A stretch of 63,338 bases of DNA, counting the filler, from Folioceros fuciformis (Eukaryota), in the NCBI GenBank assembly GCA_049999805.1. It is 6 parts of 6 records of this genome, joined end to end, with 100 filler letters (N's around TTAATTAATTAA, not from the genome) between each part and the next. Parts side by side here need not be neighbours in the genome. Positions count along the whole stretch, not along the records: positions 1 to 7,271 come from JBNGIO010005628.1; positions 7,372 to 15,857 come from JBNGIO010005630.1; positions 15,958 to 25,227 come from JBNGIO010005631.1; positions 25,328 to 35,967 come from JBNGIO010005632.1; positions 36,068 to 58,541 come from JBNGIO010005635.1; 1 more part is not named here. One strand, 5' to 3'. A program made the position numbers and the translations under genes. Shown here piece by piece: positions 2,202-58,288 of this stretch (position 1 is the first letter of the stretch; the number at the start of each line of letters is the position of its first letter). The notes below the pieces were generated by a model, which was not told the DNA's origin, made no database searches, and saw only the letters and a list, made by a program, of their open reading frames with translations.

Positions 2202-2762
2202 ATGCCCAGTCACGGAAGCCCGCGTAGGTGGTACAGAAATGGTAGCCGCAATCGCTATGGAGGAAACTTTCCTCCGCGAGCACATGTCGCTCCCCTAGAA
2301 GCAATTCTAGATTTGCATGAGCAAAATTTCGCCTACGGCTGGCTGAAGGACTCCGGTGACAGACACTCTATACAAGGGCCCAACCTACATCAAGGACGGC
2401 TTGCCAGAAATCATATGGTGGACAGCTTGCGCAGAGAGAGATTGGCGAGAAGTAGGCATGACTTTGATCTGCCCCATAGTTGGCCAAGGAATTACCAAGT
2501 CCCCTGCCACTCTGAACCACCATGCGATTACCCTGCATCCAGCGACAAGAGAAATCAAGATGTCATCACCAAATTATTTGCAAGCGTCACTAGGGTTGAG
2601 AAATCCTTATCTGTAGTGCTGTTGAATCAGGAAGCGATCAAGACCAGAGTCGATCACCTGGATAACCTGTCAGGACGAGCAATCACGGCGACAGAAAGTT
2701 CGATCAAATACCAGATCAGTGAAATTGTTGATCTTATGAAGAAGATTGAGCTTGGGCGCTAA
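2202..2762 (+). CDS. ORF0 of copia A, 186 aa, unknown function (basic N-terminus, coiled-coil-like C-terminus)
   Basis: Intact ATG ORF starting 30 nt after the PBS; GNFPPR motif; heptad-like C-terminal helix. Confidence 0.7.
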   Translation: MPSHGSPRRWYRNGSRNRYGGNFPPRAHVAPLEAILDLHEQNFAYGWLKDSGDRHSIQGPNLHQGRLARNHMVDSLRRERLARSRHDFDLPHSWPRNYQVPCHSEPPCDYPASSDKRNQDVITKLFASVTRVEKSLSVVLLNQEAIKTRVDHLDNLSGRAITATESSIKYQISEIVDLMKKIELGR

Positions 2763-3442
2763 TGGGAGGAGAGGAAACACCAGATCTCTCCCCCTGCTGG
2801 AGATTGCATCTTCTGACCTTTTTCCGCTGCAGGCAGCAAGAGCGCAGAGCGCGTGGACAACGAGAGTTGAAACGCCACCCACCTTGATGAAGCGTCTCCT
2901 GACATCTGCCATGTCACTCGAGTAGTCATCAAGTTGGAGTGCCAGCAAATCCTCACATCTCAGGACCTCAGAATGGAAAACCCACCGGTCGTGCCTCTTC
3001 ACATGATCTGGACACGTGACGGTTTAGTTAGGTTCTTCCTTTCATTAAGAGTTTATTTCATAACTTAATGACTGGCATGCATTGCGAAGCATCTAGATTA
3101 TCTTCATATGTCCCTTCGGTCAATTGGGACTGCCAAACCCTTGGCCTCTAATCCTTGCTTTGCTAGGAGGGATCAATGTTGAGTTTGTGTCAGGAAAGAC
3201 AGATAGCTCCAGGTTCCCTTGTGTATCCTGGCATAAACTCAACACCTCCCTCCCTGCGAACCAAGTATTAGAAGTCCTTCAAGAAAACTTACGAACGTTG
3301 CAACATTGTGTTTACTGTCTCTTTTTCCACAAGTCATAACTCAAGGAAGGTCACTTTACGCATGAACCTAGCATCTCTAGATCAACTTACAAAACAACTT
3401 GGTCATCTCAACTTACAGTCTAGGCAGAACACCACCTTTTCA

Positions 3443-3868
3443 ATGGCTTCTGGCTTGGGACTGTCCCCCAGTCTTGCAGGACCATCCTTCACTTCTGAGC
3501 TCAAGGAAAAGGACCGATTTAATGGAACACGTTACCAAGTTTGGAAAGTTTGAATGAAGTCCACTCTTGTAGCGCGAGGCGTATGGAGCGTGGTCGATGC
3601 TACATTTAAGAAACCTGACCCCAACTCACTGCCTCCCCCGTCAGTCAGTGACATCCAAAAATGGGACCAACTAAACTCAATAGCACTTGCCCTACTCATC
3701 GAGGGTCTGGATGCTGACTTCATACCTGATGTCCAGTATCTCACCAGTGCTTCCGAGATCTGGGATCAACTTGCAGCCACATATGGGGTACAAAATATTC
3801 TTATCCTATGTGCAGCCAGGCAGGAATTCTATGGGCTGCGTATAAGGGAGGGAGGCAAAGTGGCATCT
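3443..3868 (+). pseudogene. copia A gag, N-terminal part
   Basis: DRFNG..W...MKSTL, TSASEIWDQL; in-frame TGA at 3551-3553; interrupted by LTR B. Confidence 0.85.
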
Positions 3869-4326
3869 TGTTAGGATAAATAATTGTTGATTATTTATAT
3901 GCTAAGTACATAGTGTTTCATATTTTAGATACACTTATAAAGTGAAGGGGCACGAAGCCCAATTAACATATATAACATACATTTTTGTTAATTATTTTAT
4001 TATTCAGTATACTTGCTGTGTTGCTAGGACTACACCTCTGCTACGTCCACAGCACTAAATAAAGACTCTTCCCATGGTATCAGAGCCCAGTTGGATTCTA
4101 ATCTAATTAAAACTACAATGCGTTTCTTTGTTGTAGACTTGCTGATGCCAGTGGCAAAACTTTCAACTGGGCTCAGGACCCAGTAGTCATCACCCCTGAT
4201 GGCTCCTGGTTTCTGTGCCCAGCAAAGCTTCGCCGCCTGCATTATAGTCTTGGTATTTTGATAATGAACAAAGAAATTGTATCAATTTCCGCTGCGATTA
4301 AACTTGCTACTTACACATCCTTGAAG

Positions 4327-4780
4327 ATGCCGAGGCGGAGAGCATGCTGGCAGGCTCGCATCAGAAACGAAGCTTATAAGAAGGCCGTTGGCTCTTTCCA
4401 GCCCACCAAGACATTTGTTGCAGCCGGGCGAAACCCTGCATCAACAAGAAGCCGAAAATTGCTTAGCTCTTGCCAGCACGAGCTCCCTCCATCATCAAGA
4501 AGATTGAACCCTAACGTATTAGTAGAACGTTGCGAACGTTGTTGTCTATCTGAGCAATTTTTTTCCTCCCTTGCCTACAGATCTTCTTGGGCACAATCAT
4601 TCCTCAAATGAGCTACAAGTGCCTTCCTGTTTCAACAAACAGAAGGAAGAAATAAAGCAAGTTAGCAGGAGAATACGAAATCTTGCGACAGATATACAAA
4701 ATCTGAGCCGTCAACTCAGGAGAATTCTCGCGCTGGACTTAGGATTGCAAAGCAGATGCTTGCGATCTTCAAATCTCTAA
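4327..4780 (+). pseudogene. ORF0 of copia B, about 150 aa, one frameshift in a T-run
   Basis: MPRRRACW...CERCC; removing one T at 4558-4564 continues into KQKEEIKQVSRRIRNLATDIQNLSRQL (coiled-coil-like). Confidence 0.6.
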
Positions 4781-5210: not shown

Positions 5211-6624
5211 ATGAGTTCCACACCGTCCACATCCTCATCTCCGCTCCCTCCTGATACGCATGGCGCCCAGAGACAGCGAACTCCTCCGCCACCTGGTTTC
5301 CCACCAACTTCTTGAATGCAACCTGCATACACAGCTGACTTCAAGGAAAAGGATCGCTTTAATGGGTCTAAATATGAGGTTTGGAGTGTGAGGATGCGTT
5401 CCGCTCTAGAGGCGCGGAATGTTTGGAGTGTGGTTTCAGGAGCTCTGCCTCCACCAGGCCTCATGGCGACTGATGCAAAAAAAGAACGATGGAGCAACTC
5501 AAACAATGTTGCCTGTGCCTTTCTGATCAGTGGTCTTGATGAGGTGCTAGTTCCAAATGTTGCCTATCTAACTAAGGCATCTGAGATATGGAATCAGCTC
5601 TCACAAACATATGAGGTGAAGAACATTCTTACCTTATGTGCTGTTCGTGGAGAGCTGTTCTCCTTGAGAATGAGAGAAGGGGAGAAGGCAACAACCTTTG
5701 TTGGCAGGTTCCGTCATCTCCGCGGTCAGCTGATCTCACTTGGTTCCACCATGAGTGAACTTGATGTTGTTGCTCAACTCCTAACAAGCCTGCCTACGAG
5801 TTATCAGCCCTTCGTTTCTAGCTATGAAGCTTCTCTCCGTGATGCTGGAGCGGCTATAGCTGTAGGACAACCAAGCACCATTAGTTTCACAGATGTAGTT
5901 GGTGCACTATTTCAGGAAGAGCAAAGCAGGGCCACTCATCATGGCCCAAGACGCACAAAGATAGACAAAGTCTTGTATGCATCAAAAGGAAAACCACAGA
6001 AAAACAAAAACCTTCCTGCCTTTGGGACTGCGAAGACAGGACAGCCCAAGCACTTAGGTTCTTGCAACTGGTGTGGTGCTCGGGGTCACTGGGAAAGGGA
6101 ATGCAGAAAGAAGAAATCTGTTGAACCACGGAAAGCCAAGAAGCTCTTCAAGCAGGCTGAGGCACACTCCGTCACCAAGGATCGGCCTACTTCGGCCAGC
6201 ACTTCTTGTGGTTATGACTGTTTGTCTCTCCACATCCATAAGTGACTGTGACAGCTGGTACCTCGATTCAAGAGGTACCTCGCACATATGCAAGGACAAG
6301 ACTTTAATGAGTAACTTCATATCAGCTAGTGTAGCAGAGAGAGTGCTGCTAGGTGATGAGCTTACTCATACCGGCCTCATGATACTTGGAACTGGCACCT
6401 GTTTGTTTCGACTTTCCGATAACAGTGTGCTCACCCTCGATCATGTCCTGTATGTACCTACAATAGCAAAGCATTTAATATCAGTAAGTCAGTTGATGCG
6501 TTTATGCCGCTTTGACCCACTGCTTACTTCTAACGGTTGTGCTCTTACCATTAAAGGCTTACCCACCAATGTAGTGGCAAAGGGGGTGAGCATTAATGAC
6601 TTGTACAAGCTCCATGTGGTTTGC
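5211..6624 (+). pseudogene. copia B gag-protease
   Basis: ATG at 5211, TGA at 5313, ORF 5316-6245, frameshift into the protease frame 6073-6666. Confidence 0.85.
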
Positions 6625-7271
6625 TGTGTAGGGTTATTAAAGCCCAATGTGCTTAGACTAATGTAATTAGTCTAAGATTAGTGTCTAATTAAGTATCATT
6701 AGTTTAGATTAGCTTAAGCTAATCTTCAGGAAGCTATGAGAGACACTGTGAGACCTCTCTTTCTCCTCTCCTCCTTGCTCCTCCTCTCCTCTCCTTCACC
6801 ATGTAGCTCCTAGCGATCCTTCAAGTGGTATCAGAGCAGGTGGTGGAGCAAAAGGATGATGTGCCTGGTGCTGTGAACAAAGTGGCTGAAAGAGAGACAT
6901 TGGAGTGGCTGTATGCGACATCCGGAGTGCAAGGGCCTCTACCCCGGAGAGGAAGCCAAGAGCGGGGCGACCTCCAAGCCTCGAGACGCCCATCCACAGG
7001 AGAACGAACGCAGGCGCATTGAGCGCCGCAAGCGCACATAGCGCCCCGGGCACACAAGGCCCCCCACTGGCCAGGCAGCTCGTCCAGGGTTTAGTAAACC
7101 CTAAACCCGCCCGGCAGCCCGTCCAGGGCGCTAGCCCGCCAACACGCCAGCGCCGCGAGTGCGGGCGCGGGACGTCGACCCAACCGCTGGTTCCAGAGCC
7201 TAACGGCGTCGCCAAGGTGCGGGCCGGCCAGCCGGCGAGTGCCAGTCCGGGTTGGCAAACGGCAGCGACGT
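6625..7271 (+). mobile_element. LTR retroelement C (5' LTR, PBS, GC-rich leader) nested in B; runs into a gap; superfamily unknown
   Basis: TG... start near 6625, CT-rich 3' part ending TTCA at 6823, 2-nt spacer, PBS TGGTATCAGAGC at 6826-6837. Confidence 0.75.
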
Positions 7272-7371
7272 NNNNNNNNNNNNNNNNNNNNNNNNNNNNN
7301 NNNNNNNNNNNNNNNTTAATTAATTAANNNNNNNNNNNNNNNNNNNNNNNNNNNNNNNNNNNNNNNNNNNN

Positions 7372-8000: not shown

Positions 8001-8005
8001 TAGGC

Positions 8006-12947: not shown

Positions 12948-13238
12948 TTAGTTGTGTCCCATCTGGGTTCCAAATACCCACCACATCTTTTCTGCAATTG
13001 TGCAATCTACCAATCCTAGTTTGTAATTTTCCATGGTATTAGAGCATGGATGCACCATTGTCCCTAGGGACCTAAGCATTGCGCAACCTGCAGGAGTGTA
13101 GAATGCATCAAAAATTTGTCGCATGAGCACTTCCGCATGGTAATCGCTGCAAAGCGATTAGCGCTGGTTAGGACTAGAGACGTGGCGAACAAAGTTCTTG
13201 CAGAAACTGTCTTTCACTACTATTCATAGAAAGGCGGG

Positions 13239-13814
13239 ATGCCGAGAGCACATGGAAAGGGGAAATTACCTGTAGACCCGTTTGCCTGCAGCCTTGGTCT
13301 AAGTGTAGAAGCACAACACAGAAGTCTCCAAACATTCTTCAATTCGTGTCCCAGGCCTGCATCATGTGGTTACAACAATCCGTTTCAAAAGCCTATCCAG
13401 GTAGACCCCTTAGCAAGTCTTAGGAATCAAATTCGCAAGGAAATTAGTCACTCACTTGCAATTAACGCACAGAAGGCAAGTGAGAGTTCCACTTGCAAGA
13501 TTTGCACAAGCACGTATCCCCCTAAACCTAAGCCATTCCTCCGGGAAATTTACAACCTCGTAAGGTCTGAATCAGAAAGACATAGAAAGCAGGTGTGTGA
13601 CCTGACTGATAGGGTCATCAATTCTTAGAGACAAATTGTGATCCTCACACGTCAAATAGAGTTGCTGTCCAGGCTTCCTGTTTTTCACAAACCTGCAAAG
13701 CAACCTGACCAGACCTGCTTAAACCTGGAGATGAATCAGGCACAGCCAGTGAGCTTTGAGTCATGGGAGCGAGAATCCTTATCTCGTGCGTCCCATGACC
13801 AGGCATCTCCCTAA
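13239..13814 (+). pseudogene. ORF0 of copia D, 191 codons, one internal TAG
   Basis: MPRAHG...CKIC...ERHRKQVCDLTDRVINS*RQIVILTRQIELL; ends at TAA 9 nt before the gag ATG. Confidence 0.65.
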
Positions 13815-13823: not shown

Positions 13824-15588
13824 ATGTCCCATAGCAACCGTGGTAGGGGTACCACAAACCCAAGAGGCAGATGTAGAGGTCGTGGTACTGGAAGGGGTGC
13901 AAACCCCGACCTGAATCCTTTTTCAATTGACCCACTGGAACTAAATCAGGAGGCTGCATCCTCCCAGTCAAGCACAGGGTTGTATGCTGTACCTATAGCA
14001 CAGCTAGCCCAGGCATACGTTGTTGCACAAGCAGGAGCAGCACTCGCACACCAAGCTGTAGGAAACATGGCACAACAACCACCTCAGACTGTCACAAACA
14101 ACACAACCACGGTCAATAATATAAAAATCGACATTAAGGAGAGAGACAGATTTAATTGGACCCAGTTTGACATTTGGCACTAAGGGTTCAAACCATTTTG
14201 AGAGAGCATGATCTCTGTGGCATTATGATGGGCACAGTGCCCAAGCCTTCGCAAGGAGCAGCTCAGGCAGACATAAATGCTTGGGCAAAGCTGGACCTTC
14301 GAGCTTTGGGCATCATTCAGTCAGCCCTGGACGGGTCTATGATGCACCATACTCAAGACGTAGACACAACCAAGGATGTGTGGGATTCCCTGAACCACAT
14401 TTATAGAGTGTCGAACGGGTGCTCGATGGTGAGTGCTCATCGTGCCTTCTACAACTGCAAGATGAAGGAGCACGAGTCAGTAGAGCAGCACGTAATCAAA
14501 TTCAGGATGCTAAGGTTGAAACTCACCTCTAGTGGGACTACAACAACGGAGATGCAGGCTGCAGTAGCCTTACTCCTCTCCCTGCCGGACAGCTATCGAG
14601 TATTTGTGAGCAATCACTGCATGCACATGCGAAATGTGGCCCAGGCCACACCTGCAGGACATACACCTGCAGTCTCCCTCTCTGACCTAATTGAAGCCCT
14701 CCTGGAGGAAGAATCCACGAGGATCGCAAGTAGGGGTGGTACCTCCTCTAGAGGAGAGACCTCAAACAGAGTTCTCTACACTAATAGAGGCTCAAAGAGG
14801 CAGCCACCACGTCAGGGTGGACAGTACCAGAATGCTGGAGGTAGTGGGAGTTTCAAGCGTCGCCCACCAACAGCTGCTCTTAAGAAAAAGGGCCCCTGCA
14901 ACTGGTGCCTCATCCCAGGGCACTGGGAGGCAGAGTGCAGGAAAAAGAAGGCAGGAGAGCCCAGCCGTACAGTCCCACCAGAATCTAACATGGCATTCAG
15001 AAAGCCTAGCACAGTTCTAGCAGTCTATATGGTTTCTCCACCACAGTACAGGCATGCGTGGTACCTTGACTCGGGTGCGTCATCGCACATCTGCCACACA
15101 CAGTCTGCATTTTCTGAGTATAGAAAAGTCCCAAAGGGTTAGGTCGTACTACTCGGTGATGATCGTGGCCTACCAATTGTAGGAATAGGCAAGGTCCCTA
15201 TCATGTCGACGAGTGGAAGGGTTGAAACCTTGCTAGAGGTCCTACACGTACCAGCCCTGGTTAAAAACCTGGTGTCAGTCTACCTGCTAGACACACAGCA
15301 CAAGCTAAGCACCATGTTTGCAAATGGCTAGTGCCACGTAGTTGACCAAGGAAACAAAGGTGAAATGTTTGCAATAGGGACTCCAGTACACAACCTATAC
15401 AAGCTGGACATCCAGTACGAACTTGGCAGACCAGTGGCAAACCTGACATAGGCACAACAGGATGAGCGTGACGCCAAGCTTTGGCATGCCCGGCTGGGTC
15501 ACACAAATTTTGACAAGCTGAATATGATGGTAAAAAATGATTCACTTTACCATGAAAAATTCCTAATGAAGCATGCTGAGAAGCCCTT
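13824..15588 (+). pseudogene. copia D gag-pol 5' part
   Basis: Frameshift near 14170, TAG at 15140; standard copia motifs. Confidence 0.85.
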
Positions 15589-15857
15589 TGTGGGGTTAAA
15601 ATATGGTACCCGGGGGTACCGCGAGGTCCACACAAGCCCTCTATGTCGTTGTAGCTCTGGGATTCAATCCCAAGGGAATGATTCGTGTTAAACTACACAG
15701 ATTAGCTTCTAAAGTCAATTAGCACCCAAACTCGACTGACCCACGCACACATGTCCCGTGCTCGGTCCTTACCCAGTCCCCTTACTTCTCCCACCAGACA
15801 ACCCTCCTACCACCTAGTCGCACCAGGGACTACCTCCCCCTGGACTACTCTTGGTGG
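15589..15857. mobile_element. Probable LTR of another element inserted into D pol; runs into a gap
   Basis: pol homology stops abruptly and the new sequence begins TGTGGGG. Confidence 0.5.
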
Positions 15858-19543: not shown

Positions 19544-22500
19544 TTAGGTTGGATCAGCTAGGAAAGTCTCTGACTCCCCTAGTCTAAGACCCTTTACGTG
19601 TTTTTCATGTAGCTCCCGTCCAAGAGCTTTGGTTAAGACATCTGCTGGATTGTCTTGTGTGGAAATATATTGGAGTTCGATTGTTCCTGCAGATACTAAC
19701 TCACGAATGTAGTGGTATTTGACTTCCACGTGTTTCGTCCTTGAGTGGAAGACTGGGTTCTTAGCAAGAGCAATTGAGCCTTGGTTGTCTATGTGTATAG
19801 TTATGCAAGTTGGAATGTCGATCCCCATCTCTGAAAATAGAAGCTTGCACCAGACTATTTCCTTAGCTACTGCTGTCAGTACTCGATAATTAGCTTCAGT
19901 GCTGGACAGCGCCACTGTTGGCTGCTTTTTATTGGACCAGCATATGGGTCCTCTAGCGACATAAACACAATATCCAGATACGAACTTTCTAGTGTCTAGA
20001 TCTCCAGCGTAGTCAGAGTCTGTCTAAACCTTCAAGTCAAGAGGAACTCCTAATTGGTTAGAGTATTGTATGCCTCTATTTGCTATTCCCTTCAGATACC
20101 GAAGTACTCGTTTAACACAACTCCAGTGTTCCTGTCCAGGGTTCTCGAGATATTGCGACAAAACACTATTTGCATATGTGACTTCAGGTCTAGTTGTGTT
20201 AGCAGCGTAAATAAGTTTACCAACTGCTTGTCTGCAAGGAACGTTGACCATCAGATCCTTATCACTTTGTGTGACAGGTGACATGCTCTTGCTGAGCTTT
20301 AAGCCACTGGGGAGGGGTGTAGCCACTACTTTAGCATCTTTGAGGCCAAATTGTTTAGCATAGTCAAGTAAGTATCTTGGTTGAGTTAGAGTAATAACCC
20401 TAGTTCGTCTATTCTTTTGCATATAGATAGATACCTAGGCAACTCTGAAGTGGACCAAGATTTGACATTTTGAATTTTGTGGCCAGGAGATTAGTGATCT
20501 TATCAATATATGACTGAGTATTGCTGGAGAGTATAAGATCGTCAACATATACAGCTGAGTAACATATTACCTCTGTGGTTTTGTATATGTATAAGCTACC
20601 ATCAACTTTACTTTTTGTAAAACCTAAAGCTAAAAGTTCCTTGTCCAGTTCTTCATTCCATTTCATGGTAGACTGTTAGACTGTTTTAGTCCATACAGAC
20701 ACTTCTTAAGTTTGCAAGCATATTCCTCCTTGCCTTGAATCTCATAGCCAGGGGGTTGCTGCATATAGATCTTTGTATCTATCTTCCCGTTTAAGAATGT
20801 TGTTTTGACATCAAACATCTACAATTCGTAGTCTCTGTGAGCTGAAATTGCACATGGTTCGCAGTGTAGCAGGTTTGACAATTGGAGCGAAAGTTTCAAA
20901 GTAGTCAAGGCTAGGAATTTGAGAGAAGCCTATGGCAACAAGCCTGGCTTTGTACCTATCAAAGGTACCATCAGCTATTACTTTCAATTTAAATACCCAC
21001 TTGTAGGATACCAGTTTTCTACCGGGAGGAAGTTTTGCTATCTCTTAGGTACTATTTTCAATTAGGGAATCATATTCCGATTGAATGGCTTTCTCCCATT
21101 CCTTATGATCAGGACAACTTAAAGCTTGCTGTAGAGATTGAGGCTCAAGTGGGTCTAGGAAAGTGAGAGAGTGTGCCTGAGCATAGGAAGAGATAGGCCT
21201 AAAGTCAGGCGCTTGATAATAATCAAGTGCTCGACGTTCTCTAGCAAGGTAACGGCGTACTGGCTGTGGGGTCAGAACAAGTAGTTGCTCGTCAAGAGGA
21301 GGTTGCTGCTGCAAATCATCAAAGTTATGATTGTCTTCTGCATCCACTACTAACTCTTCCTATTGAGGCACTAGTTGACCTTGTTGATCTTCCCCCCATT
21401 GCAGGAGCAACATCCTCATGAGGAGAATCATCAAACAAAGTTACATCATTGAAAGAGAAAGATGTATTAGTCTCCAGAGTGGGAGAAGCTCCCACTGAAG
21501 GTAAAAAATTTTGCTCATCAAATGTAACACTGCGTGAGTAAATCACTTTGTCACGAAAGATGTCATAGAGTTTGTAAGCTTTTATCCCCTCTGTGTAGCC
21601 AATCATAAGAAGTCTTCTGGCCTTTGCAGATAATTTCTTTCTCTTCTCCTTGGAAATGAAGGCATAAGCAATACACCCAAAGGTACGCAGATGTTGAATA
21701 GAAGGTTTTCTGCAAAGAAATGCTTCATATGGTGTCTGCCCTTCAACAGCAGTGGTTGGCAATCTGTTTAACAGATAAACAGATGTCATAAGGGCTTCAG
21801 CCCAATATGGTAGGGGTAAAGCTGCATGATACAACAGTGAAGAGACCATCTCCTGAAGAGTGAGGTTGAGGTGTTCTACAACGCCATTCTGTTGTGGCGT
21901 GTAAACAACGGTAAGTTGTCTGCCAATCCCTTCATTTGCACAAAATGCTTGAAACTCATTTGAAGTGTATTCGCCCCCATTGTCTGAGCGAAGTGTTTTT
22001 AATTGTTGTCCAGTCCATCTCTCTACATACTTTATGTATTCTTTGAATAGAGAGAAACATTCACTTTCAGCCTTCAGTATATATGCTGTAACAAAACATG
22101 TTTTGTCATCTGTGAATGTGAGGAAATAACGACCTCCACCAATAGAGGGTTGTGAGAGGGGTCCACAGATATCAGAATGGGCCAATTCAAGCGCTTCCGA
22201 AGCTCGATGTGGAGCCTTATTCTTGAAGGCAGCCTGATGACACTTAGAAAGTACACATGCTTCACAGAGAGGTAAGGGAGGCAAGGAACCAATTTGGCCA
22301 TCATGATACAAGTCACTTGTAGCCAACTGCTATAACTTGGAACTATGTGGATGACCTAAACGGCCATGCCATAACTTCACCTTTTCAATTTGCTTTGCAA
22401 GAGCATCAATAGCCTTTGAAGCTAAGTCAGTTTGTGCAGCAGCATGTGCAGCATTGGTGTGAAGACGAAAAAGAACACTGTCAGATGATCCATATGCCAA

Positions 22501-23811
22501 GATCTTATGAGAATCAAGGGCATCTATAATCTTACATTCTATAGGTATAAACAAGATGTGTGTATTGTTATCCATGTTTAGCTTTCTAACAGATATAAGA
22601 TTCCTTGTCATCTCAGGTACGTAATATATATATGTGAGCAACCGAGTAATTTTTGAAGGAACTTTAAGGTTTACTGTTTCTCTTCCAGGAGACACAAGGG
22701 ATCTATTATCACCTAGGTAAACAAACTGATATGTTAATGGCTGATAAGTTGCAAAGGCATTGCTGTCAAAACATATGTGCGCTGTTGCACCAGTGTCTAG
22801 GAACCATTCTTGGAATGATTTAACCTCAGTTCTTGTGGATAGACAGGTGGGATAAATAAGAGGGCAAGCAAACTCCCTAGTCCCTACAATAAGGACTGAT
22901 GGGGAGGACTGCTTCTTTACCACAACATGTGTCTCAAAAGTGGAATTGCTCTCCTTGCGAGGTATTCCGGCTTGCTTCTTACGACATTCGTGCTCCCAAT
23001 GGCCTGGAATTTAGCACCAATGGCACTTTCCAGCCTTCTTGGGTTTCTTCTGTGTGACACCCTTTGGAGGAGTCCTAGCACTTGAAGAATACTGTTGACC
23101 TCGGAAATTAGGTTTGCCCCCCTTTCCTCAATTTGTGGTATAAAGGGCATGTTGTTTGCTCCTTACAAGTCCTCTTGTAGCCTCTTCCTCAAGAAGAGCT
23201 CCCACTAACTCTATGAATGTCATCTTAGGGAGAGTAACATTTGAAGCCTTTGCCAACTTCATAGCTGTGAGCTTTGAAGCATTTAATGAGGTCACAAAGT
23301 GTGACCATGATGGAGGCAAGGAAAGCATCAGGTATAGGGCTAGCATGTCATCCTTTACGCTCTCATTTGAAGCACTCTCAAGTTTTGAAACTAGGTTCCT
23401 AAAGGTCCCAGCGTGCTTCTCCACATAGTCACCATCTTTCATTTTACAAATCTGTAGATTTTGTAAAGCTGTCATTTGACTAGTTGTGTTGTTACCTGAA
23501 TACAGGTTTTGCAAGCGAGTCTAGACTTCAGCAGCAGTTGCACATCCAGAGGTCTGTCGCATCATATAAGAAGTAAGACCAGTTCTAATGATGTACATTG
23601 CATGCTCATTCTTGACTACCCAAGCCTCCTGAGATGCCATGTCAGGCCCATCATCCTTTTCCTCATCAATAGTTATCTTCCATAGTCTCTTACTATGAAG
23701 AATGCCCCGCATCCTCATAACCCAGATGTCATAGTCCTGTCCACCAAACATGTCCTTTTCCCTAAAACCATCTCCTCCTATGTAATTCATAGTGGATGAA
23801 GACTCACCCAT
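19544..23811 (-). pseudogene. copia E gag-pol, degenerate
   Basis: WFLDTGATAHIC, LWHGRLGH, HSDICGP, RSDNGGEY, YVDD, ALSSTEANY, HSRTKHVEVKYH; many stops and frameshifts. Confidence 0.92.
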
Positions 23812-23958: not shown

Positions 23959-24681
23959 CTAGAGTGCGTTGATAAAAGTTGTAGGGATAGGGCAATAATG
24001 TTCACGGAACATTATGGTTTGTTGGAATCTTCTATTTTTCTTGTTTGTCCTCCTGTTCTTCGAATGAGCAGGAGAAGGTAAGGAAGGTTTGAAACTATTG
24101 ATTCTACAAGGAATGTCCAGTTTGCTAGAAGACCAGGATTCAGTATTGTGAAGTACTAGTTGATGAACTAGTTTAGATTTCAACATAACTAGCAATTTGG
24201 AATCAATATCAGAAATATGTTGTTTCAAATTCAGAATATCAAATCCAACAGCGGCAATTCTCTTGTCAGTATTGTTACATCTTTTATTCATGCTTTTCTA
24301 ATGTGCTTCAATTCTCTTGGCCAGATTACTTACAGCATTGAGTTGTTTAACATGCGCAGTAAGAGGGCTTTTGAGATTTGTTCTTAAATTGAAGGCACAT
24401 TGAGCATGAATTTCAGGCAAAGAAGTAATAGCCAAATGTCGCTCATTAGGGTAAAGAACAGCAATCAATGTATTGAAGGACTTCCTTAACTCAATAGCCA
24501 GGATTGATTGGCCTTCATTGAAAGCTATCCAGTCATTGATCTTCTGATGAAGGTACTGTGGAATTGTTAATCTAGCTTGCTTGCCTTTTGACATGCGTAT
24601 CCTGCGACAATTCAGACATTGTGGGAATCGTGCTCCAGATTGCGATAGCCTTTGATTTGGCTTGATTCGATTATTGGCCAT
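23959..24681 (-). pseudogene. ORF0 of copia E, 240 codons, one internal TAG
   Basis: Two in-frame ORFs (24681-24298 and 24291-23959); RFPQCLNC motif followed by a long coiled-coil-like segment. Confidence 0.65.
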
Positions 24682-25327
24682 TCATTTGGCCAGTTAATAT
24701 TTTGACAGAATGCATTAGAAAATGATTATTGCATTCTATTGCTTTGAATACTTTGTAGACTACCTGCAAATCAGGCAGTTGTCCTAGTATATTTCCATCA
24801 GATTGCTCAAGAAGCAATCTGGCAATCTAGCAGAAGTACACTGGGACTGCTACTTTAATTTGCTAGGTTTCATCCTATTTTTAAATTTTTATAGAATGTT
24901 TAGAGCAAGAAATGAATCTTGACTTTCATTTTTATTTTCTTGATATTCAGAATCAAGAAAACATATAATTCTATAAATCAATATATTATGTATAATTCTA
25001 TAAATCATTAATATGTTTATGCATTTACTAGGATGCATTCTGTACACCCTGCTATGATACCATAACAAATAAACTTGTCTATATTAAGAATAATTATGAT
25101 TACATTGTGTGTATCAAAAAGAGCTTAAGACATATGTTGAAAAGACACTTTAGCTCTATCTTAAACAACATAACTGTTCGCTATAAGTCGCAACCCTAAC
25201 GAACGGGCACTTAATAATTATTTATTCNNNNNNNNNNNNNNNNNNNNNNNNNNNNNNNNNNNNNNNNNNNNTTAATTAATTAANNNNNNNNNNNNNNNNN
25301 NNNNNNNNNNNNNNNNNNNNNNNNNNN

Positions 25328-34453: not shown

Positions 34454-34732
34454 TTATTGACTCCGGGTTGTGAACAAGTCACGCATCAAAGCGGTTATGA
34501 TTTCCATCTGAGATTCGAGACAAATTATCTAGATTCGGAGATGATCTTCAGAGAGAGAATCGTGCGGGCGGTCCTGTTCATTAGCAGGTGAGCGTAGTGG
34601 AAGGAAGACTGTTCTGGTTCGGTAGGATTCACAGAATTCGGTACGCTTATTGCAGTTGTTGCAGGGCGCGTTGGGAAAGCGCGGTGGCCGCGCTTGCGAT
34701 GTGCGAATGGGCTGCACCTTACTCCGAGGCAT
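34454..34732 (-). pseudogene. ORF0 of copia F, 92 codons, one internal TAG
   Basis: MPRSKVQP...RFPNAPCNNCNKR...LRI*IICLESQMEIITALMRDLFTTRSQ*; homologous to ORF0 of H. Confidence 0.7.
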
Positions 34733-35087
34733 CTCGCAGATTCAGGGTCAGACGTCGGAGTTGCTGTGCTTGGCACCCTGAGCCATAAAAACCTGGTTGT
34801 CGCTGCGTGCGGACGTAGGTCACACGGGGCGTCGAGGCTAATCTGCACGCCAAAGAACCATCTGGCTCTGATACCATAAAGCCGCAATGTATATGGTGCA
34901 AAGATGTGCGTACTGACTAATTAAGTTCGGGGTCTTATATACACGTTACCGTATTTAGTTGAACCGTAATTAACTATTTTATAGTTTGTAACTATGCGAA
35001 CCGCTAATTCTCATAACTAGACGAACCGTGCCCTAATCCCATCGAGTCTCCGTTCCGTCAACGTGTCGCTATTGTCACAACAGCTTG

Positions 35088-36909: not shown

Positions 36910-39900
36910 TCAGGCAGTAAAATACTTGCTGAAATCTACGAGACCTAAACCCTCTACATGCGTCTGATGTTTGTGTTTGGGCAGTGGTTTAGTGAGGACA
37001 TCAGCCGTATTTCTGTCAGTGTGGATATAAACAGGGCTGACAATTCCCCTAGCCTTAACATCCCTAACGTAGTGATGTGCAATTTCTATATGTTTCGTTC
37101 TAGCGTGAAACCTAGGACGATCAACAAGGGCTAGGGCAGATTGATTATCACAGTGCAGTGTAGTAGGGAGTAGCTACTCACAGTGCACTGAGGAGAGGAA
37201 AGAGCGTGCCCATTCAGCTTCTTTCGCAGCATTGGTGAGGCATTTATATTCTGCTTCAGTGCTTGAGAGGGCAATGCTGCTTTGTTTCTTACAGCTCCAT
37301 GTAACGGCTGCAGAAGATAAGAAGAAGACATATGTAGACAAGCTCTTGCGTGTGTCCCCATCAGATGCCCAGTCAGCATCAGCAAAGGCTGACAAGGTAG
37401 GTGTTTCTCCTGTTCTTTTGTAGCATAGTCCATAATTATGTGTCCCCTTCAAATAACGAAATACTCGTTTGATGGCAGTCCAGTGATTACGGCCAGGACA
37501 GTCCAGAAATTGAGAGGCTGTGTTCACAGCATATGTGATATCTGGCCGAGTCCAATTACTTACAAACAATAAGCTGCCGACTGCGTGCCGGTATGGGACA
37601 TCTTTCATATCAGCAATGTCAGCAGCTGAAACGGGACTGTCATCCTTGGTGAGTTTGACACCACTTGCACAAGGTGTGTTGGCAGGATGTGCATTGTCCA
37701 TGTTAAAACGTTGGAGAATTTCTGAAATATATTTACGCTGATGGATAATGATCAACCCCTCTGCACGTACTCTCAATACTTGTATACCAAGACAAAATTT
37801 CAGCTCCCCTACATCTGTCATTTCAAATTCTGTTCGTAACATGTCTTGAACTCGTGCTAACAAGTGGGTATCATTTCCAGCAAATATGGCATCATCAACG
37901 TAAATAGCCAGAAGAACATAAGAGGTGCCATCATCATAGATGTAGAAAGAAGGATCTGCAGGGCTCTGTCGAAATCCAAGGCCCTTTAGGCAGGTATCCA
38001 GTCTTGCATTCCACCGTTCTGCACTTTGTTTAAGGCCGTAAATGCACTTAATAAGCTGACACACATAGTCTGGATGATCAGGGTCTTCATAGCCTTCGGG
38101 CTGTTCCATATACAATTCTTCTTCGAGTATCCCATGTAAGAAGGCCGTTTTCACATCCATTTGCTGCAGTTCTAAGTCACGCTCAGCAGCTAAAGCAAGC
38201 ATGAGGCGAATTGATTGAGAGCGTACCACTGGAGAAAATGTCTCTTGGAAATCCAGACCAGGTATTTGTGTGAATCCACGTGCGCAGAGCCTTGCTTTAT
38301 AACGTGCTATGTTACCATCAGCATCTAACTTATGCTTGAATACCCCAGGTTATAGGTTTGCGCCCCTTAGGACGAGGAACAAGTTTCCAGGTACCATTTT
38401 GCATAAGACTGTTGAATTCATCATCCACAGCATGCCTCCATTTATCTCTATCGGGACCTGAAAATGCTTCTTTGAGAGTGACAGGCTCAGGAGGGATAAT
38501 GGGCAAAGAGGCATTGTGGACAGATGGGATACAGACTCCCACTGACTTACGAAAGTCGATAGATGTGTAACGGGGCTCTAGCCATTCAGAGGGAGGGCAA
38601 TGAGCACGTGTAGACCTACGTACAGGTTCATGTGTAACATCAGCTGAAACTGGCAATGCTGGTAATGTCTCTTCTTCACCAGAAGAATCAGAAGATTGGG
38701 AAGAACTGTCAAGTTCAGGTTCTGATTCTACGGGGTTAACTGGATTGTGGGGAAGATCATGATCTGAATTTTCAGCATTGTCATGTGCAGATTCTACATC
38801 AGGCTCTGCATCTAGTGGAGTATCAGCTGGAGGAGCAGGTGGGAACATGACACCAGCATCAGCTTCACCGTCAACATCATCTGGATACTCACCAGAATTT
38901 TCAGAATACAATTGGCTGGTAGAATCCCCCAAAGTGCTTGGTAAATAAGGAGGATCAGCTGATGATGGAACCAAATGCTCAATAAAGGTAACACTACGGG
39001 CTACCACCGGCTGTATATTGTGCATATCAAGAAGTTTGTAGCCCTTAGTCACTTCACTGTAGCCTACAAATACAAGCTGTCTCGAGCGATTGTCAAGCTT
39101 ACGTCTCTTCTCTGCAGGCACATAAGCAAAGGCCCGAGAACCAAATATGCGAAGATGTAAAAGACTTGGCTTTCTATTCCAAAAGAGCTGAAAAGGTGTG
39201 CCACCAGGAACAGAACGAGAGGTAAGGCGGTTCAAAATGTAGGTTGTTGTGACAACAGCCTCAGCCCAGAAAGGATTGGGCAGTCCAGACCATAAAAGCA
39301 TGGAGCGCGTCATCCCCATCAGAGTCTGGTTCTTTCTTTCCGCCACGCCGTTCTACTGCTGCGTGTATGGAACTATCAGCTGATGGATAATGCCTTGTGT
39401 TTCCAGGAAATGCTCAAAGGCAGAGCTTGTAAATTCCCCTCCGTTGTCGGTGCGGAACATCTTCAGCATGCGACCAGATTGCCTTTGAACAACCAACAGC
39501 CAGTCTTGAAATATCTGAAAGGTGTCACTCTTATGCTCCATAGGGTAGGTCCATGTATATCTGCTATAGTCATCAGTGAGAGTAAAATAATATAATGCTC
39601 CACCAAGAGATTGTTCTTGAAGTCTCCCACTAATGTCAGCATGTACTAACTCCAGAACTGCCGTGGATCGAAATGCAGGAACTGTAGGAAAAGGAGTCTC
39701 CCGCTGTTTTGCCAAAGCACAAACTTCGCATATGGGTAGATCTTTGAAACAGCGAGGAAGAGGCTCCCTGTAACAGTCCTGCCTTGATAAGTCAACAAGT
39801 TTAGAACGGTTTGCATGCCCAAGGCGGGCATGCCAAAGTATAGCCTGCTGAGCTGTTGTCAAGGGACCAACAGCTGTTGAATTTACTTGTTCACGGCGGA

Positions 39901-41251
39901 TACAAGAGATATCCAGACGATACAATTCTGAATCTAGGACAGCTTTGAAAATACAGCGAGAAGGTGAGCTACGACGAGCAAAGCAACATGTGGTTTCTGA
40001 GACTGTAAGTATGAGGTCCTTCATCTGCATTATCTTGCTAAGTGACATTAAATTTTTAGCCATCTTAGGAACATAAAGAACATCTGGTAAAACTAAGACA
40101 GTATCATCATGAAGTGGGAACTTACAGATGCCTTTACCATGTATGTGCAGACTGCTGGAACTGGATTCATCACCTAAGAACACTCGTTCAGAAATAGTGG
40201 TAAGGGTCAAGCTAGTGAATTGGAGCTCATCACGACATATGTGAGCGGTGGCACCGCTATCAAGGTACCAACTGTCTACCTCACTCGTTTGAGTGCTCAG
40301 GCAGAGTGTTAATATTTTCACAACTGGTTTGCTTGACTGAGGTTCGGAAACCTTTTCTTTTGATTGTGATGTGGCAGGTGCAGCTGTAGGTCGAGGTGTT
40401 GCCCGCTGAGGCTCCCCGGCCTTTTTCTTTCTGCACTCTCTGGCCCAGTGCCCAGGAGTCCCACACCAATTGCAGTTACCTTGTCTCCTTGATGCAGAAG
40501 GTTGAGTGGCATTGCGCTGAGCAGGTGGTTGACCTCTCCCTCTGCCTCTCATGTTGAATCGACCCCCTCTTGTCGCAGAAAAAACTTTGTCAGTTTTAGA
40601 ACGGCTGTGTTGTCCCCTTGATGACATTTGGCGGCTCATTTCCTCTTGATATAGAGCCCCAATAACATCTGTGAGCTTGACACTCTGGCCGGCAGCTCGA
40701 ATGGGACCATTTTGCGTGGTGACAAATGTCTGGTAACTAGGAGGCAGGCTGGTGAGAAGTTGAGCTACCGCATCCACCTCTTGCATAGTTGTGCCAAGAG
40801 CAGCCATTTGAGCACGCAAGTGCCTAAATCGACTAGTGAATGCTGCAACAGAATCTCCTTCCTTCATGCGCAAGGTATAAAATTGCTGCCTTACTGCGCA
40901 TAAGCTCATCATTGTTTCAACTTTATAAGTTCCTGTAAGCTGATCCCAAATTGCTTTTGCATTGGTGAGAAACTCGACTTCAGGGACAAGATCAGACTCA
41001 AGCCCATTGACTAGGAGGGCTACAGCAATTCTGTTCAGGTTATCCCATGCATCTTTCTGTTTTTGAGTAACAGTAGCTCCTGCTGTTGTAGGATTAGAAG
41101 GAGTGCCGGGATCTGGGTTTGTCCCATCAACTACATCCCAGACTCCACAAGTAAGTAAAGTGGATTTCATCCTAACACTCCAAATATCAAAACGCGTGCC
41201 ATTAAATCTGTCTGTACTCTTAAGATCAGAGGTAAAAGTAGGGGCTGACAT
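36910..41251 (-). pseudogene. copia G gag-pol
   Basis: CNWCGTPGHWAREC, WYLDSGATAHIC, RTDNGGEF, YVDD, ADADWA, LSSTEAEY; two stops and one frameshift. Confidence 0.95.
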
Positions 41252-41603: not shown

Positions 41604-42247
41604 TCACAGGATCGTGATAGGTGGGCAATCATGCCCTGAAGATTTAGATTCTCCTGAAATGAATGGTGACTCCGCCTTCAATTTCTCAAGGGGAGGTAAA
41701 TTAGAAGCTCCAAGTAGAAGTAGCAATTGATTGCTGATACGTTGCAAATGACCAGAGTATTCTTCCTTCAAAGAAGAAAGTGCATGTTGAAGGCATTTCT
41801 CTTGTTCATGCATAACCTCTAAAAAAAAAAATCATGTTTTGCGCGCAATTGAGCCACACGTGTCTCAATACGATTATAATAAAATTCCACCACAGAATGA
41901 GCATCTTCATAATCAGGATATTCAAAATCAGAATCTTCTGAAATAGCATCATCAAGAAACTCCAAATTAGACTGAAATTTATGATTTTCAGGAACTGGTT
42001 TTGAGTGGCTCCTGGGAGCCCCAATCTCTTGATGCCTATTCCTACTTTGCTCCCGCGTCAAGTTGCGGAGCCTTCTTTGTTCTTGCAATTGCCACTTCCA
42101 AAATTGTCGTAGTGAAACTCGATAATTATTGAATGTCTCATCGGTCCATGGCAATTTAGGAGTGGGTGGAGGAATATGTGATTCACGCTGGTGCCTTGGA
42201 GGAAATTCACCACGCGAAGAAACACGTTCTCCACGACCACGTGGCAT
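41604..42247 (-). pseudogene. ORF0 of copia G, about 213 aa, frameshift at an 11-nt homopolymer
   Basis: MPRGRG...GEFPPR; ATG 35 nt after the PBS; helical IETRVAQLRAKH...LQHALSSLKEEY. Confidence 0.65.
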
Positions 42248-43420
42248 TGCAAGATACGAAGGATTCAAACACCATCAAGGCGCTCTGATACCATGCGGAG
42301 ATACCTCATGCATCTAGCAAGAAAGGCCAGCATGCAGAGGCATGCGAGAGCAATAGAACAAAACGATGTGTATTCAATAATNNNNNNNNNNNNNNNNNNN
42401 NNNNNNNNNNNNNNNNNNNNNNNNNNNNNNNNNNNNNNNNNNNNNNNNNNNNNNNNNNNNNNNNNNNNNNNNNNNNNNNNNCAGAGGCATGCGAGAGCAA
42501 TAGAACAAAACGATGTGTATTCAATAATAAGCAGAAAAATGTTATATACAAAAAGTACCCTATTAACCCTAAATAACATAACCTAAAAGTAAGTAGGGAT
42601 ATTTAACCGTCGGGGTTATTAAACCAACACGCCCGTGCCGCCACTGCCGTCGCAATGGTCGCGACCTTCCCTTCCATAGCGGCGGCCCTTTTCTTTTTCT
42701 CTGCAGGCTGGATTTGAAGCTGGATTGCTACGGGAATCGATGAAATTTCTGGTCAGGCACGCAGATTGATGATCCCGGCGGCTTGCCCTTCCCTCCGCGC
42801 CGTTGCAGCCATGGCTGCTATGGCGGCAGATCTTTCTCTTGCTATTCACAAAATCACGTTTTTGGTGGCTTCTCCTTGCATGGTTGTGACTCTGGAGATT
42901 CTGAATGGTGTGCTGGAGTGTGGGCACCCTATTCTTCTGACCTCCTTGGCTGGAATCCACGCACCAGAAGTTGGCATCAGTCCCTTCCTCGTGATTGCCA
43001 GCCCTTCCAGCTCTGGACTTCATAGCCGTATAGAGGTTCTTGGCAGCAGCACAGGAAAATCTCTCCCTCTCATCCCGATCCTGCTTGGAGGCATGGAGGG
43101 ATGCTCTGGTAGTTGTCACCATCTCCTCACCTGCAAGCATTTCCAGGATAAAGAAGATGGAGGACAACAATTTATCAAAGAGCAAGGAGGCAAGGGGAAC
43201 GTGACCCCAACAAACCGTCCTTGCCCTTGGACGGGGGTCAAATAAAATGATTTCTAAATTAGGTAATTAATTATCTATTAATTAATTTCATTTAATTGAT
43301 TTATAAATTAAAACACTTTTTAAGCTATTTTACTTAAGAACTAGATGTCACGTTTAGGCCTACTCAGGCTCTTTTTGAAGCTAGAAAAAAAAATCTCTAT
43401 TTTGTTACCCATAGTTTACA

Positions 43421-55412: not shown

Positions 55413-57063
55413 CTTGTGGTGCAGAAAGGTCGTGTCTTTGTCCTTCAGAATTCATTTTGCAAGGTCTTGATCTCCTTGAATTCAATGTCTAGAGGTTTTA
55501 CTGCTTGGAGATGCAGATGTCCAATGTTCACTTCTACATTTATAAATCTGTAGATGTGAAATAAATCTACGACGGTGAGTGGCGTGGGCTAACCCTCGTA
55601 AGCGATAAAGTTTGACATTCCTGATGGAGCAACACATTCCATACATTCTATTTCCTTCATAATTAGGGGAAATATCAGGGCCTTCGTGGCAAGTTTTGGG
55701 TTAGGCAAATGTCATTCGTAGTTAAACGGTTACATGACTGCACCAACGCCCGGCCTATTAACGCTAGTGGGTGCTCTGACTATACGCGGGATAGAGAACC
55801 AGTTCTCCCTCCCATCTCCCACTTCAGGCATAAGATCAGTGCACAGATCTCACACCTAATGGCCCGAAGAGGCACCAGCGCCTCCAACCAAGGACCAAAT
55901 GACTCGAACTAAATCTTGAAAGCCGTAGATCTCTTCTAGAGTAGCTTACCTCAATGAAGTCGACAGAAATAGATGACAATATAAGTTATGACACAAATGA
56001 ATTTAGATGTAAAAAAAAAAAAAAAGTAAAATATTAATATAGTACCTGCCTTAGTGAAGATGCATTTATTGCATGCTTTTAGTAAATCCCCAAAGAGAGG
56101 AGTTGTGTTGCATGCTTCATGCAAAACTCCTAGAGAGGAGTTGTGGCAACCATTCTTGAGAGGACTTTAGGAGATGAATAGTATGCATGAATTCCAATAT
56201 TAGCAAGTATCTATTTCAGGCCTACTTGTGAGGTTTATAAGAGCTAGAGCAAAGGCATGTCCAAGTCCAATTGAGACATTGCCACGAACAGTTGTTCATG
56301 TCACAGTTTGGTGTTACCCTTTTAGGACCAACGAGTGTAGTAGTCCTATAAAACAAATTCATGCCCTTATTGCATCCAACACATTAATGCAAGTTGGACC
56401 CAAGTGGCACCAAGTTGAAATTTGCAACAGAACTCCTTGCCCTCTGCATTATGATTGGTTTAAGAATTTCGATATAGTTGGGTGGCTTGTAGTGTATCCC
56501 CTCCTAAGCTCGGTATAATATCCCCTTCAAAGTCATACAATACATCTCACATTGTAGGATACGTCTCGCACTTCGCCTTCCCCCTAGGCAATTGTGGTGG
56601 CAAAACCCCCTGGCATTGTTTGCCAAAGGATTTGACCTTTAGTGTCCACACTTATGCCACTGTCGTTGAGACATTGGGTTTCATTCCCATGAAGGAGCGA
56701 TGGGGTTCCTCGCTGTTATGGATGGAGGGTCGGACTTAATCAACTCGATGTCGGATTCGAGGGCTCCCCTCTAACTCTACTGAGGCGTGGAACAGTCCTC
56801 GTTGTCCAGCGGTCGACTGCACCTCTCTCGGTGCCTACAAATTCACTCCAACCACTACAACGACATTAACCTCTCATGTCCACGACTTCCCTCACTCACT
56901 TCACTCACTCACTCCAGCACCAACACCAGCAACAACACCACTACCTTCTACACTTCCCTATTGACTCCTCCACTTGAAAGAGTCACTCGTCTAACCCCAA
57001 GGAAGAGAAAGAGGAAAACACACTCCCCTCTTAGATACCTCGTCCCCACAACCTTTTTTTTTT

Positions 57064-58288
57064 TGTTACCACCAAGGTGGCACCGACAGAAAAGAGTAAG
57101 AGAAGTTTAGGGCACAGTTCAGTTTAGGGTTATATAACTAACCTCAGCAGTTATTAGATATAGTTAAGACGATCAAAACAGTTAAGTAGTTTAGGCAGTT
57201 TAACCGTGGCGGTTTAACCGCTAACTAGGGCTATATAAAACAAGCCCTCAACAACAATAAATCTATCTTTTCTTCTCCCATAGGTTTCTAAATGGTATCA
57301 GAGCTGCGTTGCTCCTCGCTGCGCGTTTCTCGCTTCTGCACTCAAGGCCTGAGCCTCTGAACCTAGGCCCCATGGCGCAAAGCAAGGCACGCTGAATTTC
57401 GAGCAACCGATCCTGAATTCCCCGTGAGATGCCGCGATGACGCATGCTACCCTCCAGCGCATCACGGGCGCCGCAGCCACGCCCAGCACCTGGACCCTGC
57501 AACCACCACACAAGGTGCTAAGTACACGGTGAATTCTCAAGACCCCACCTCGAATTCTTCCCCGAGGGTTACCTTTGAATCCAAATCGTTCAGCTCGAAT
57601 CTCAGATGGAAATCATAATCGCCATCATGCGCGACCTGTTCGCAAGTCGCTGCCAGTAAGCCGGACGTCGCATACGCCCTCCTTCGATCCCTTATTGAAA
57701 TGCAATCTTCAGGGATGAAAGCAAAATCAATGGCAACCAATCCAGTCGTCAGTACGTCAATTGTCAATACCACGAAAGTGGAATTCAGGGACCGAGACCG
57801 GTTCACTGGCAGTGACTACGATACCTGGCAGATGCGAGTCATAGCGCTTCTGGAGGAGCACGACCTCATGGGAGTCGTCGAAGGTATAGTTCCCAAACCC
57901 TCGACTGCAGGAGGCGCCTCTGCCGACCAAATTGCAGCCTGGGTAAAGAAAGACAAGAGGGCCATCAGTATCTTATTTTCAGCACTAGACAAGAACATGT
58001 TCCAGCATACTCAAGGCCAGAAGACAGCCCACGAGATCTGGAAGGTGTTCAAGGACATGTTCGCAGCACAAAGCTCCATGTCAATAGTAAACGCCACACA
58101 ACAATTCTACCTACTGAGAATGAAGGAAAGCAAGAGGATTGAGAAGCATGTACACAACTTCATATCAACAAGAGCAAAGCTTGCATCTAGTGGTACCACG
58201 TTGAATGAGTACCAAGCAGCAGTTGCGTTACTAACATCCCTTCTTGCATCATATAGAACATTTGTAAGCTCGCAGAGCTCAGCCCTTC
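57064..58288 (+). mobile_element. Ty1/copia element H (relative of F), truncated by LTR family X
   Basis: LTR about 57064-57292; PBS at 57293-57304; gag 57700-58288 very similar to F gag. Confidence 0.9.
57429..57659 (+). pseudogene. ORF0 of copia H, 76 codons, three internal stops (TGA, TAA, TGA)
   Basis: MPR*RMLP...YL*IQIVQLESQMEIIIAIMRDLFASRCQ*. Confidence 0.6.

Follow-up and report, generated by a model that had tools for sequence, protein, structure and literature searches.

The copia superfamily of long terminal repeat (LTR) retrotransposons is regarded as structurally uniform, with one gag-pol unit per element and the 3' open reading frame (ORF) of SIRE as its noted exception (PMC6317226, in the text available). 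Accessory ORFs (aORFs) of plant elements are described as lying mostly 3' of pol, and for copia the SIRE 3' ORF is the case singled out in the available text of four papers (PMC7264820, PMC6317226, PMC4093653, PMC2533021). A 5' accessory ORF is a layout familiar in gypsy and hardly described for copia. Neumann et al. (2019; PMC6317226) define an eORF-5'F class, and according to the available text of that study only ORFs of at least 250 codons were counted and ORFs fused to the polyprotein in some copies were removed. The 5' aORF proteins of gypsy Tekay elements are described, in the accessible part of the sunflower study, as largely disordered, with stretches resembling nuclear localization signals (NLS), few helices and no conservation between species (PMC11728184), and a 5' aORF has been described in Retrosat-2 (PMC3485330, accessible in part). 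Here we analyzed a 63,338-nt stretch of DNA from Folioceros fuciformis (GenBank assembly GCA_049999805.1), called the window below; all coordinates refer to its whole length, which includes 12 N-masked blocks and has an observed/expected CpG ratio of 0.52. Seven decayed copia elements in it (A, B, D, E, F, G and H) each carry a sense ORF, termed ORF0, past the primer binding site (PBS) for initiator-Met tRNA and ahead of gag, as an earlier note on this DNA had claimed; its coordinates and translations were reproduced for all seven. We regard these ORFs as a real structural feature, and give an even chance, the highest among the readings considered, to ORF0 being a genuine, fast-evolving 5' accessory gene, the copia counterpart of the Tekay and Ogre gypsy 5' aORFs. 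Its product is probably a small basic helical protein.

In the available descriptions of Tekay (sunflower Tekay 13-2; rice RIRE3, RIRE8 and the Retrosat-2 'ORF0'), a sense ORF likewise lies between the 5' LTR/PBS and gag and encodes an orphan, mostly disordered protein with few helices and a basic or NLS-like character, and the Tekay proteins are kept within a family and dissimilar between hosts. However, those are gypsy elements of flowering plants, whereas the elements here belong to copia and their host, judging by the matches of a histidine kinase gene in the window, is a land plant and most likely not one that flowers, and the sunflower aORF has about 400 amino acids (aa) against 67-240 codons here, a comparison made by description only. 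Ogre (Tat, gypsy) ORF1 and the eORF-5'F class, as far as the available text goes (PMC6317226), share the extra forward ORF upstream of gag, but the ORF0s are shorter, and that of element D is in frame with gag. The env-like 3' ORF of SIRE/Maximus is also an accessory, fast-diverging orphan ORF in copia, but in the descriptions at hand it lies downstream of pol, often has several hundred codons and shows transmembrane features. Like hordeivirus gamma-b and pecluvirus P15, ORF0 is small and basic with a predicted helix, and some copies have CxxC; unlike them, the Cys motifs are not in all ORF0s (the open piece of G has no cysteine and A no CxxC) and no family match was found. In LINE-1, too, the first cistron codes for a basic protein (ORF1p) that is disordered in part and has a long helix, and an enzymatic ORF follows it on the same RNA, but ORF0 has neither an RRM nor the C-terminal domain and has no Pfam match. 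The closest known analogue is the gypsy 5' aORF and not the viral suppressor. The earlier note knew of no copia lineage with such a 5' ORF, and none was found in the mostly open-access literature, although the supplement of Neumann et al. may list copia cases in the eORF-5'F class. The 250-codon cut-off, as given in the available text of that study, would miss ORF0s like these: the longest intact one has 186 codons (A) and the longest read-through one 240 (E).

Initiator-Met PBS sites with at most one mismatch number nine in the window against 0.33 expected, and seven of the nine lie upstream of a copia gag. The leader from the PBS to the gag ATG measures 1282 nt in A, 1241 in B, 1034 in D, 1251 in E and 1042 in G, and 437 and 422 nt in F and H. 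ORF0 begins 41-381 nt from the PBS, and gag lies behind 89-704 nt with 2-9 additional ATGs, a range also put at 15 to 700 nt with up to 9. It is the first long ORF past the PBS, and in A and G it is preceded solely by a short ORF from an ATG at the LTR/PBS junction. In A (2202..2762, +), ORF0 is intact, with 186 codons plus a stop and an MPS start 41 nt past the PBS start. In B (4327..4780, +), 94 codons are open from an MPRRR start as far as 4611, and the extension to 4780 crosses stops. The ORF0 of D (13239..13814, +) starts MPRAH and consists of 129 codons, a stop, 62 codons and a stop, in the gag frame. That of E (23959..24681, -) starts MANN and has 127 codons, a stop and 112 codons, with the motif RFPQCLNC, and that of F (34454..34732, -) starts MPRSK and has 67 codons, a stop and 24 codons, with the gag ATG 15 nt further on in a different frame. 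The open part in G (41819..42247, -) runs from an MPRGRG start, 46 nt past the PBS start, over 142 codons to a T10 run; 75 open codons in the next frame beyond it (41604..41831, -) were the continuation of ORF0 in the earlier note. The G start (42237-42247, -), ATGCCACGTGG, includes a perfect, G-box-like palindrome, CCACGTGG, absent from the other ORF0 starts. In H (57429..57659, +), a remnant with an MPR start has three internal stops in 76 codons, and its phase, start and stop are as in F. An MP[R/S] start is therefore present in six ORFs, E being the exception. The proposed length of about 76-240 codons holds if the breaks are read through and not for open frames, A alone being intact. The proposal that the stops are explicable by C-to-T change carries no weight, because it holds for any stop codon.

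The longest sense ORF of each leader was compared with 500 dinucleotide-preserving shuffles of that leader, and the shuffles reaching the observed length were counted. This length was reached by 1 shuffle of A, 8 of D, none of E and 2 of G, with B marginal (18), and the antisense ORFs of the leaders have only 29-80 codons. ATG-CCN-Arg sites occur 14 times in the window, counting both strands, and five of them are ORF0 starts, whereas the roughly 6.5 kb of sense leader should contain about 0.5. The Arg codon of this start varies among the elements (AGG, AGA, CGG, CGT, CGA), and ahead of the ATG the bases are not conserved between families. The short motifs pointed out in the earlier note, which had been selected after inspecting the data, are all present: A and G have G[N/E]FPPR in common, E and F have RFP..CxNC, and CxxC occurs in both B and D. 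The GxFPPR motif differs synonymously between A and G (GGA/GGT, CCG/CCA, CGA/AGG), and in RFP..CxNC every one of the six residues common to E and F has a different third codon base. Amino acids kept while codons change are a mark of protein-level selection. FP falls inside residues 6-35 in four of the seven ORF0s, compared with 13 of 221 other ORF N-termini of the window. The N-terminus is basic, as proposed, with a net charge over residues 1-40 of +2 to +10 against 1.5 +/- 3.0 in the same 221. A codon-usage likelihood trained on the gag-pol of the window gave, pooled, +24 bits for the ORF0 frame compared with -83 and -33 for the other two, a statistic with an upward bias whenever a frame is open, since frame 0 came out best in 30 of the 52 background ORFs as well. 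The codon usage of G ORF0 was gag-pol-like, and none of the 52 background ORFs reached its score.

Conservation at family level was examined in the one pair available, F and H. All 77 codons of H ORF0 are in phase with F, and start and stop are common to both, while each copy has internal stops of its own, one in F and three in H, at different positions. The sole indel within ORF0 is 48 nt long, and the gaps in the flanking leader are of 1, 2, 9, 3 and 1 nt. The two elements are 76% identical in gag, 62% in ORF0 and 47% in the parts of the leader that flank it. The ORF0 frame gave a dN/dS ratio of 0.33 and the other two frames 0.79 and 1.19; the corresponding values in the gag control were 0.11, 0.94 and 2.07. 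The dN/dS of this single pair counts in favour of the accessory-gene reading. A codon-position test of ORF0 (27, 25 and 35 differences) was not significant (p = 0.38), whereas that of gag was (p = 0.023).

The A and G proteins, the two that were modelled, were predicted with AlphaFold2 without an alignment, and the models had low confidence (mean pLDDT 54 and 60), so that matches in a fold search would be meaningless. In A, residues 1-65 were disordered and a helix spanned residues 113-185 with pLDDT up to 92. In G, residues 1-35 had no secondary structure (pLDDT mostly <50), and helices were predicted with moderate confidence at 36-74, 87-107 and 116-137. The claim that all ORF0s end in a helical segment is thus borne out, as a prediction, for A and G. 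The two-copy complex prediction for A residues 108-186 scored 0.07, compared with a mark of 0.32, and speaks neither for nor against self-association of the C-terminal helix. CxxC occurs in B, D, E and F; the open 142-residue piece of G lacks cysteine, and A has two cysteines six residues apart and no CxxC. Pfam gave no meaningful family for eight ORF0 pieces at E <= 1. The best E-values against the PDB were 0.91 for A and 0.1 for G, and ESM Atlas gave a best score of 0.79 for A and none for G, in neither case indicating a relative. The best match of ORF0 among 124 copia polyproteins and the gag of the window had E = 0.11. A candidate relative in a viral contig (locus L001) was dropped; it is a gammaretrovirus-like animal element with a zinc-knuckle match only.

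Under the accessory-gene reading, a single ancestral ORF0, open at the time the copies inserted, would have retained three features, namely the start with M-P-R, an N-terminus that is disordered and rich in Arg, and the short motif [R/G]-x-F-P, and the remainder would be helical and diverging too fast for alignment between families. ORF0 would be translated from the full-length RNA as the first long cistron, after the short ORF of the LTR/PBS junction. Its product may be a small protein that binds nucleic acid or is targeted to the nucleus and assists the element RNA or Gag; the basic disordered head would serve nucleic acid binding or nuclear traffic and the helices would serve protein contacts. 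The gag-pol ORF would then have to be reached by shunting, by internal entry, or from a spliced or shortened RNA. If true, a 5' gene kept in several deep copia families of a single plant would mean that the 5' aORF phenomenon is not confined to gypsy but includes copia, and surveys with a 250-codon cut-off would overlook such genes. It would also raise the question of how gag-pol is translated behind a leader of 1.0-1.3 kb with a long ORF and many ATGs. The ORF0 of A (186 aa) would be a small natural intact protein for probing the roles of orphan retrotransposon proteins.

Several results weigh against this reading, to which the F/H codon-position test above and the case of D below must be added. 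Only one of the seven ORF0s is intact (A). The ORF lengths of F and H are unremarkable alone (109 and 435 of 500 shuffles reached them). The unannotated rest of the window (about 30 kb) contains 52 ATG ORFs of at least 60 codons and 12 of at least 128 codons; against so high an empirical background, length alone is weak evidence, although part of these ORFs may belong to other decayed elements. The codon-usage scores of A, B, D, E and F were no better than those of background ORFs. Between families, ORF0 is barely alignable: among 21 pairs, F-H (z 20) and A-G (3 of 300 shuffles) alone stand out, and the BLASTP match of A with G, over the N-terminal motif, has E = 0.023, while the gag of A and G is 52% identical. 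A search with A ORF0 in 1.84 billion protein representatives gave no match, and a metagenome scan with an alignment of the G and B gag gave 127 pattern matches, none of which was confirmed, so that no further copy was found beyond the window.

The metagenome was also searched with a DNA pattern consisting of the PBS, 15-45 nt and ATGCCNMGNGG. This gave 64 matches in 63 loci, mostly of one or two plant-type LTR-element families without coding capacity. In loci L002-L064 (e.g. L009 785-925), the initiator-Met PBS is followed after 38 nt by ATGCCNCGNGG, and the MPRGR-start ORFs have 6-62 codons; an ORF of at least 90 codons from the pattern ATG was found in three of the 64 matches. No copia match was found in the pattern loci at E <= 1e-3 with five queries, nor a tRNA gene in the six loci checked. 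In locus L004, an MPRGR start 50 nt past the PBS continues into a weak gag-like motif. The pattern loci give no support for ORF0 and call for caution, as they show that a long ORF need not follow the start motif.

The single lineage supposed in the earlier note is not shown, and the elements do not form a tight one. In a quick reverse transcriptase (RT) tree of 28 rows (25 outsiders with E, F and G; A, B, D and H have no RT), E, F and G stood on long branches in an open polytomy. The RT of G was 58% identical to a Logan protein and about 44% to F. By gag, the elements of the window are mutual best matches, together with one Logan protein 62.5% identical to B, and fall into the groups A/B/G and D/F/H, while the integrase (INT) comparison gave no support for a common clade. 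On sequence comparison, gag and INT together suggest at least two deep groups.

The first alternative is that ORF0 is an N-terminal part of Gag, still fused to it in D and elsewhere severed by decay, by expansion of the leader or by a spliced intron. The stretch between the two ATGs, of ORF0 and of gag, was read with the fewest possible events, a stop or a change of frame counting as one, and compared with 200 shuffles. In D, where ORF0 is in the gag frame, no more than 2 events in 828 nt interrupt the MPR frame on its way into gag, which none of the 200 shuffles matched, and this result also counts against the accessory-gene reading. The D stretch next to gag is likewise Arg/Gly-rich (13824..14066, +; starting MSHSNRGRG) and links ORF0, open and in frame, to the gag domain (gag to INT, 14067..15589, +). 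In D, E and G, ORF0 is in the frame of gag; in G, the gag ATG is immediately preceded by a pyrimidine-rich tract with AG at its end; and the metagenome locus L004 has an MPRGR start leading into a weak gag-like motif. However, a common frame in three of seven elements is the chance level, and the pyrimidine tract is found in G only (0.67, compared with 0.43-0.58 in the others), which does not indicate an intron common to the elements. All seven elements have their own gag ATG, 10-45 codons ahead of the conserved DRF-G motif, and none of 25 related polyproteins that were fetched has an MPR start or a long extension before the capsid motif. Past the first stop, A, B and G are as stop-rich as shuffles (82, 164 and 35 of 200, respectively); in A, the 680 nt separating the ORF0 stop from the gag ATG appear non-coding, and E is coding-like for about 240 codons and stop-rich beyond. 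Decay is also uneven in G, with 2 breaks in about 1385 codons of gag-pol against 4 events in the 567 nt of leader past ORF0. We consider it unlikely that ORF0 is part of Gag. The claim of a separate gene fits A, B, F, G and H, where ORF0 is set apart from gag by frame or by a stop-rich spacer, and is not clear-cut in D, which is in frame and nearly open through to gag. In our reading, ORF0 stands apart in most families and is fused or nearly fused in D.

A second alternative assigns the leader ORF a role in translational or RNA-level control, as a gating long upstream ORF (uORF) or a conserved start region, with a functionless peptide. This would suit the concentration of conservation at the ORF0 start, the absence of ORF0 similarity across families, a codon usage that is mostly background-like, and the wide variation in ORF length (67-240 codons), distance to the PBS (41-381 nt) and distance to gag. 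The PBS with the same start motif also occurs in the non-coding metagenome LTR elements, with ORFs of 6-62 codons, and the G start overlaps the palindrome CCACGTGG. However, over residues 13-27 the amino acids are kept and the codons changed, the sequence directly upstream of the ATG is unconserved between families, and the F/H phase was held over 77 codons at 38% nucleotide divergence. ORFs of 127-186 codons also far exceed what a control uORF needs, and they beat the shuffles. A purely regulatory leader ORF is, in our judgement, distinctly unlikely.

That decayed, TA-poor leaders merely happen to be open in these frames, and that the MPR start is a coincidence of few related copies, is very unlikely. 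The many unexplained ORFs of the window (52 of at least 60 codons, 12 of at least 128), the non-significant lengths of F and H alone and the post hoc choice of most motifs speak for it. Against it stand the shuffle tests of A, D, E and G, the five of 14 MPR sites at ORF0 starts where about 0.5 would be expected, the conserved residues with their synonymous-codon pattern, the phase kept between F and H despite private stops, and the short antisense leader ORFs (29-80 codons). We hold just as little likelihood for a bolder form of the accessory-gene reading, in which ORF0 would be an old, rapidly evolving gene of several deep copia groups of non-seed or non-flowering land plants, translated before gag from the genomic RNA and acting against silencing or steering RNA (export, packaging) in a two-gene, retrovirus-like layout with gag-pol reached by bypass or from a spliced RNA. 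The earlier note's specific proposal, an anti-silencing factor or a Rev-like exporter of RNA with the architecture of Cys-rich plant-virus suppressors, is not supported and likewise very unlikely. A basic tail with a helix is a generic architecture, ORF0 has no sequence relation to any family, and the open 142-residue piece of G has no cysteine and A no CxxC. In favour of it are the basic N-terminus and helical remainder, the CxxC of B, D, E and F, a rapid divergence compatible with an arms race, and the speculation, in the accessible part of the sunflower study, that Tekay aORF proteins modulate RNA silencing (PMC11728184). With no family match, no general Cys motif and no homologue, any function of ORF0 remains an inference.

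The elements themselves were assigned by their domains. F and G have the Pfam order Retrotran_gag_2, Pol_BBD, gag_pre-integrs, rve, SH3_retrovirus, RVT_2, which is the copia order of gag, protease (PR), INT and RT, and the same order was recovered with tblastn in E. A, B, D and H are 5' fragments whose readable part contains only gag, or gag to INT. A complete LTR pair was found in F and a partial one in E; none was found in A, B, D, G and H, which are truncated or N-masked. The PBS of A (2161..2172, +) has one mismatch to the initiator-Met PBS, and its gag start (3443..3868, +) ends where element B begins. B has its PBS at 4075..4086 (+) and its gag and protease region, with Retrotran_gag_2 and Pol_BBD, at 5316..6666 (+). 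The PBS of D is at 13034..13045 (+) with one mismatch. E has a PBS at 25051..25062 (-) with one mismatch and a decayed gag-pol at 19826..23811 (-), with LTR remnants at 25126-25227 and 18322-18420. The PBS of F (34865..34876, -) is followed outwards by the 5' LTR (34877-35082), with the 3' LTR at 29506-29711 (206 nt, 95% identical), and its gag-PR-INT-RT lies at 30362..34439 (-). G has its PBS at 42282..42293 (-) and gag-PR-INT-RT-RNase H (RH) at 37174..41251 (-), with one stop and one frame change. The PBS of H is at 57293..57304 (+), and its gag start (57715..58293, +) has 76% amino-acid identity to F. The two other PBS sites, 6826-6837 (+) and 44616-44627 (-), have no visible gag behind them, the sequence there being masked or interrupted, and the readable part shows no MPR ORF.

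Further observations were made around these elements. Within 2161-7271, A, B and the 6826 fragment are arranged in tandem in the same orientation, each cut in gag or INT at the next LTR/PBS, and the 3' parts that they lack are not found further downstream. The DNA past the 44616-44627 (-) PBS is AT-rich and has 113-nt direct repeats at 43719-43831 and 44301-44413. An Arg-rich ORF of 173 codons (42622-43140, -) lies directly before the masked 5' LTR of G. In E, the interval from RNase H to the 3' LTR (18421-19826) contains a sense ORF of 161 aa (18792-19277, -) and an antisense ORF of 239 aa (18562-19281, +) with no Pfam match. An inverted repeat at 36097-36343 and 58289-58535, 97.6% identical, has both copies adjoining an N mask; one side abuts the truncated gag of H and the other lies about 1 kb upstream of F. 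A second inverted repeat (8006-9467 and 11044-12507, about 1.46 kb, 82% identical) holds a zf-RVT ORF (10887-11531, -) and is probably LINE-derived. A tandem array with a 158-nt unit occupies 59092-60181, with at least 6 copies that are 61-87% identical to the first. Finally, a host gene with large exons at 50966-54940 (+) encodes a cytokinin-receptor-like histidine kinase with CHASE, HATPase_c, CRE1-type receiver and response-regulator receiver domains; an N mask lies inside it (52294-52393), and its best matches, about 50% identical, are spread across gymnosperms, ferns, lycophytes and mosses.

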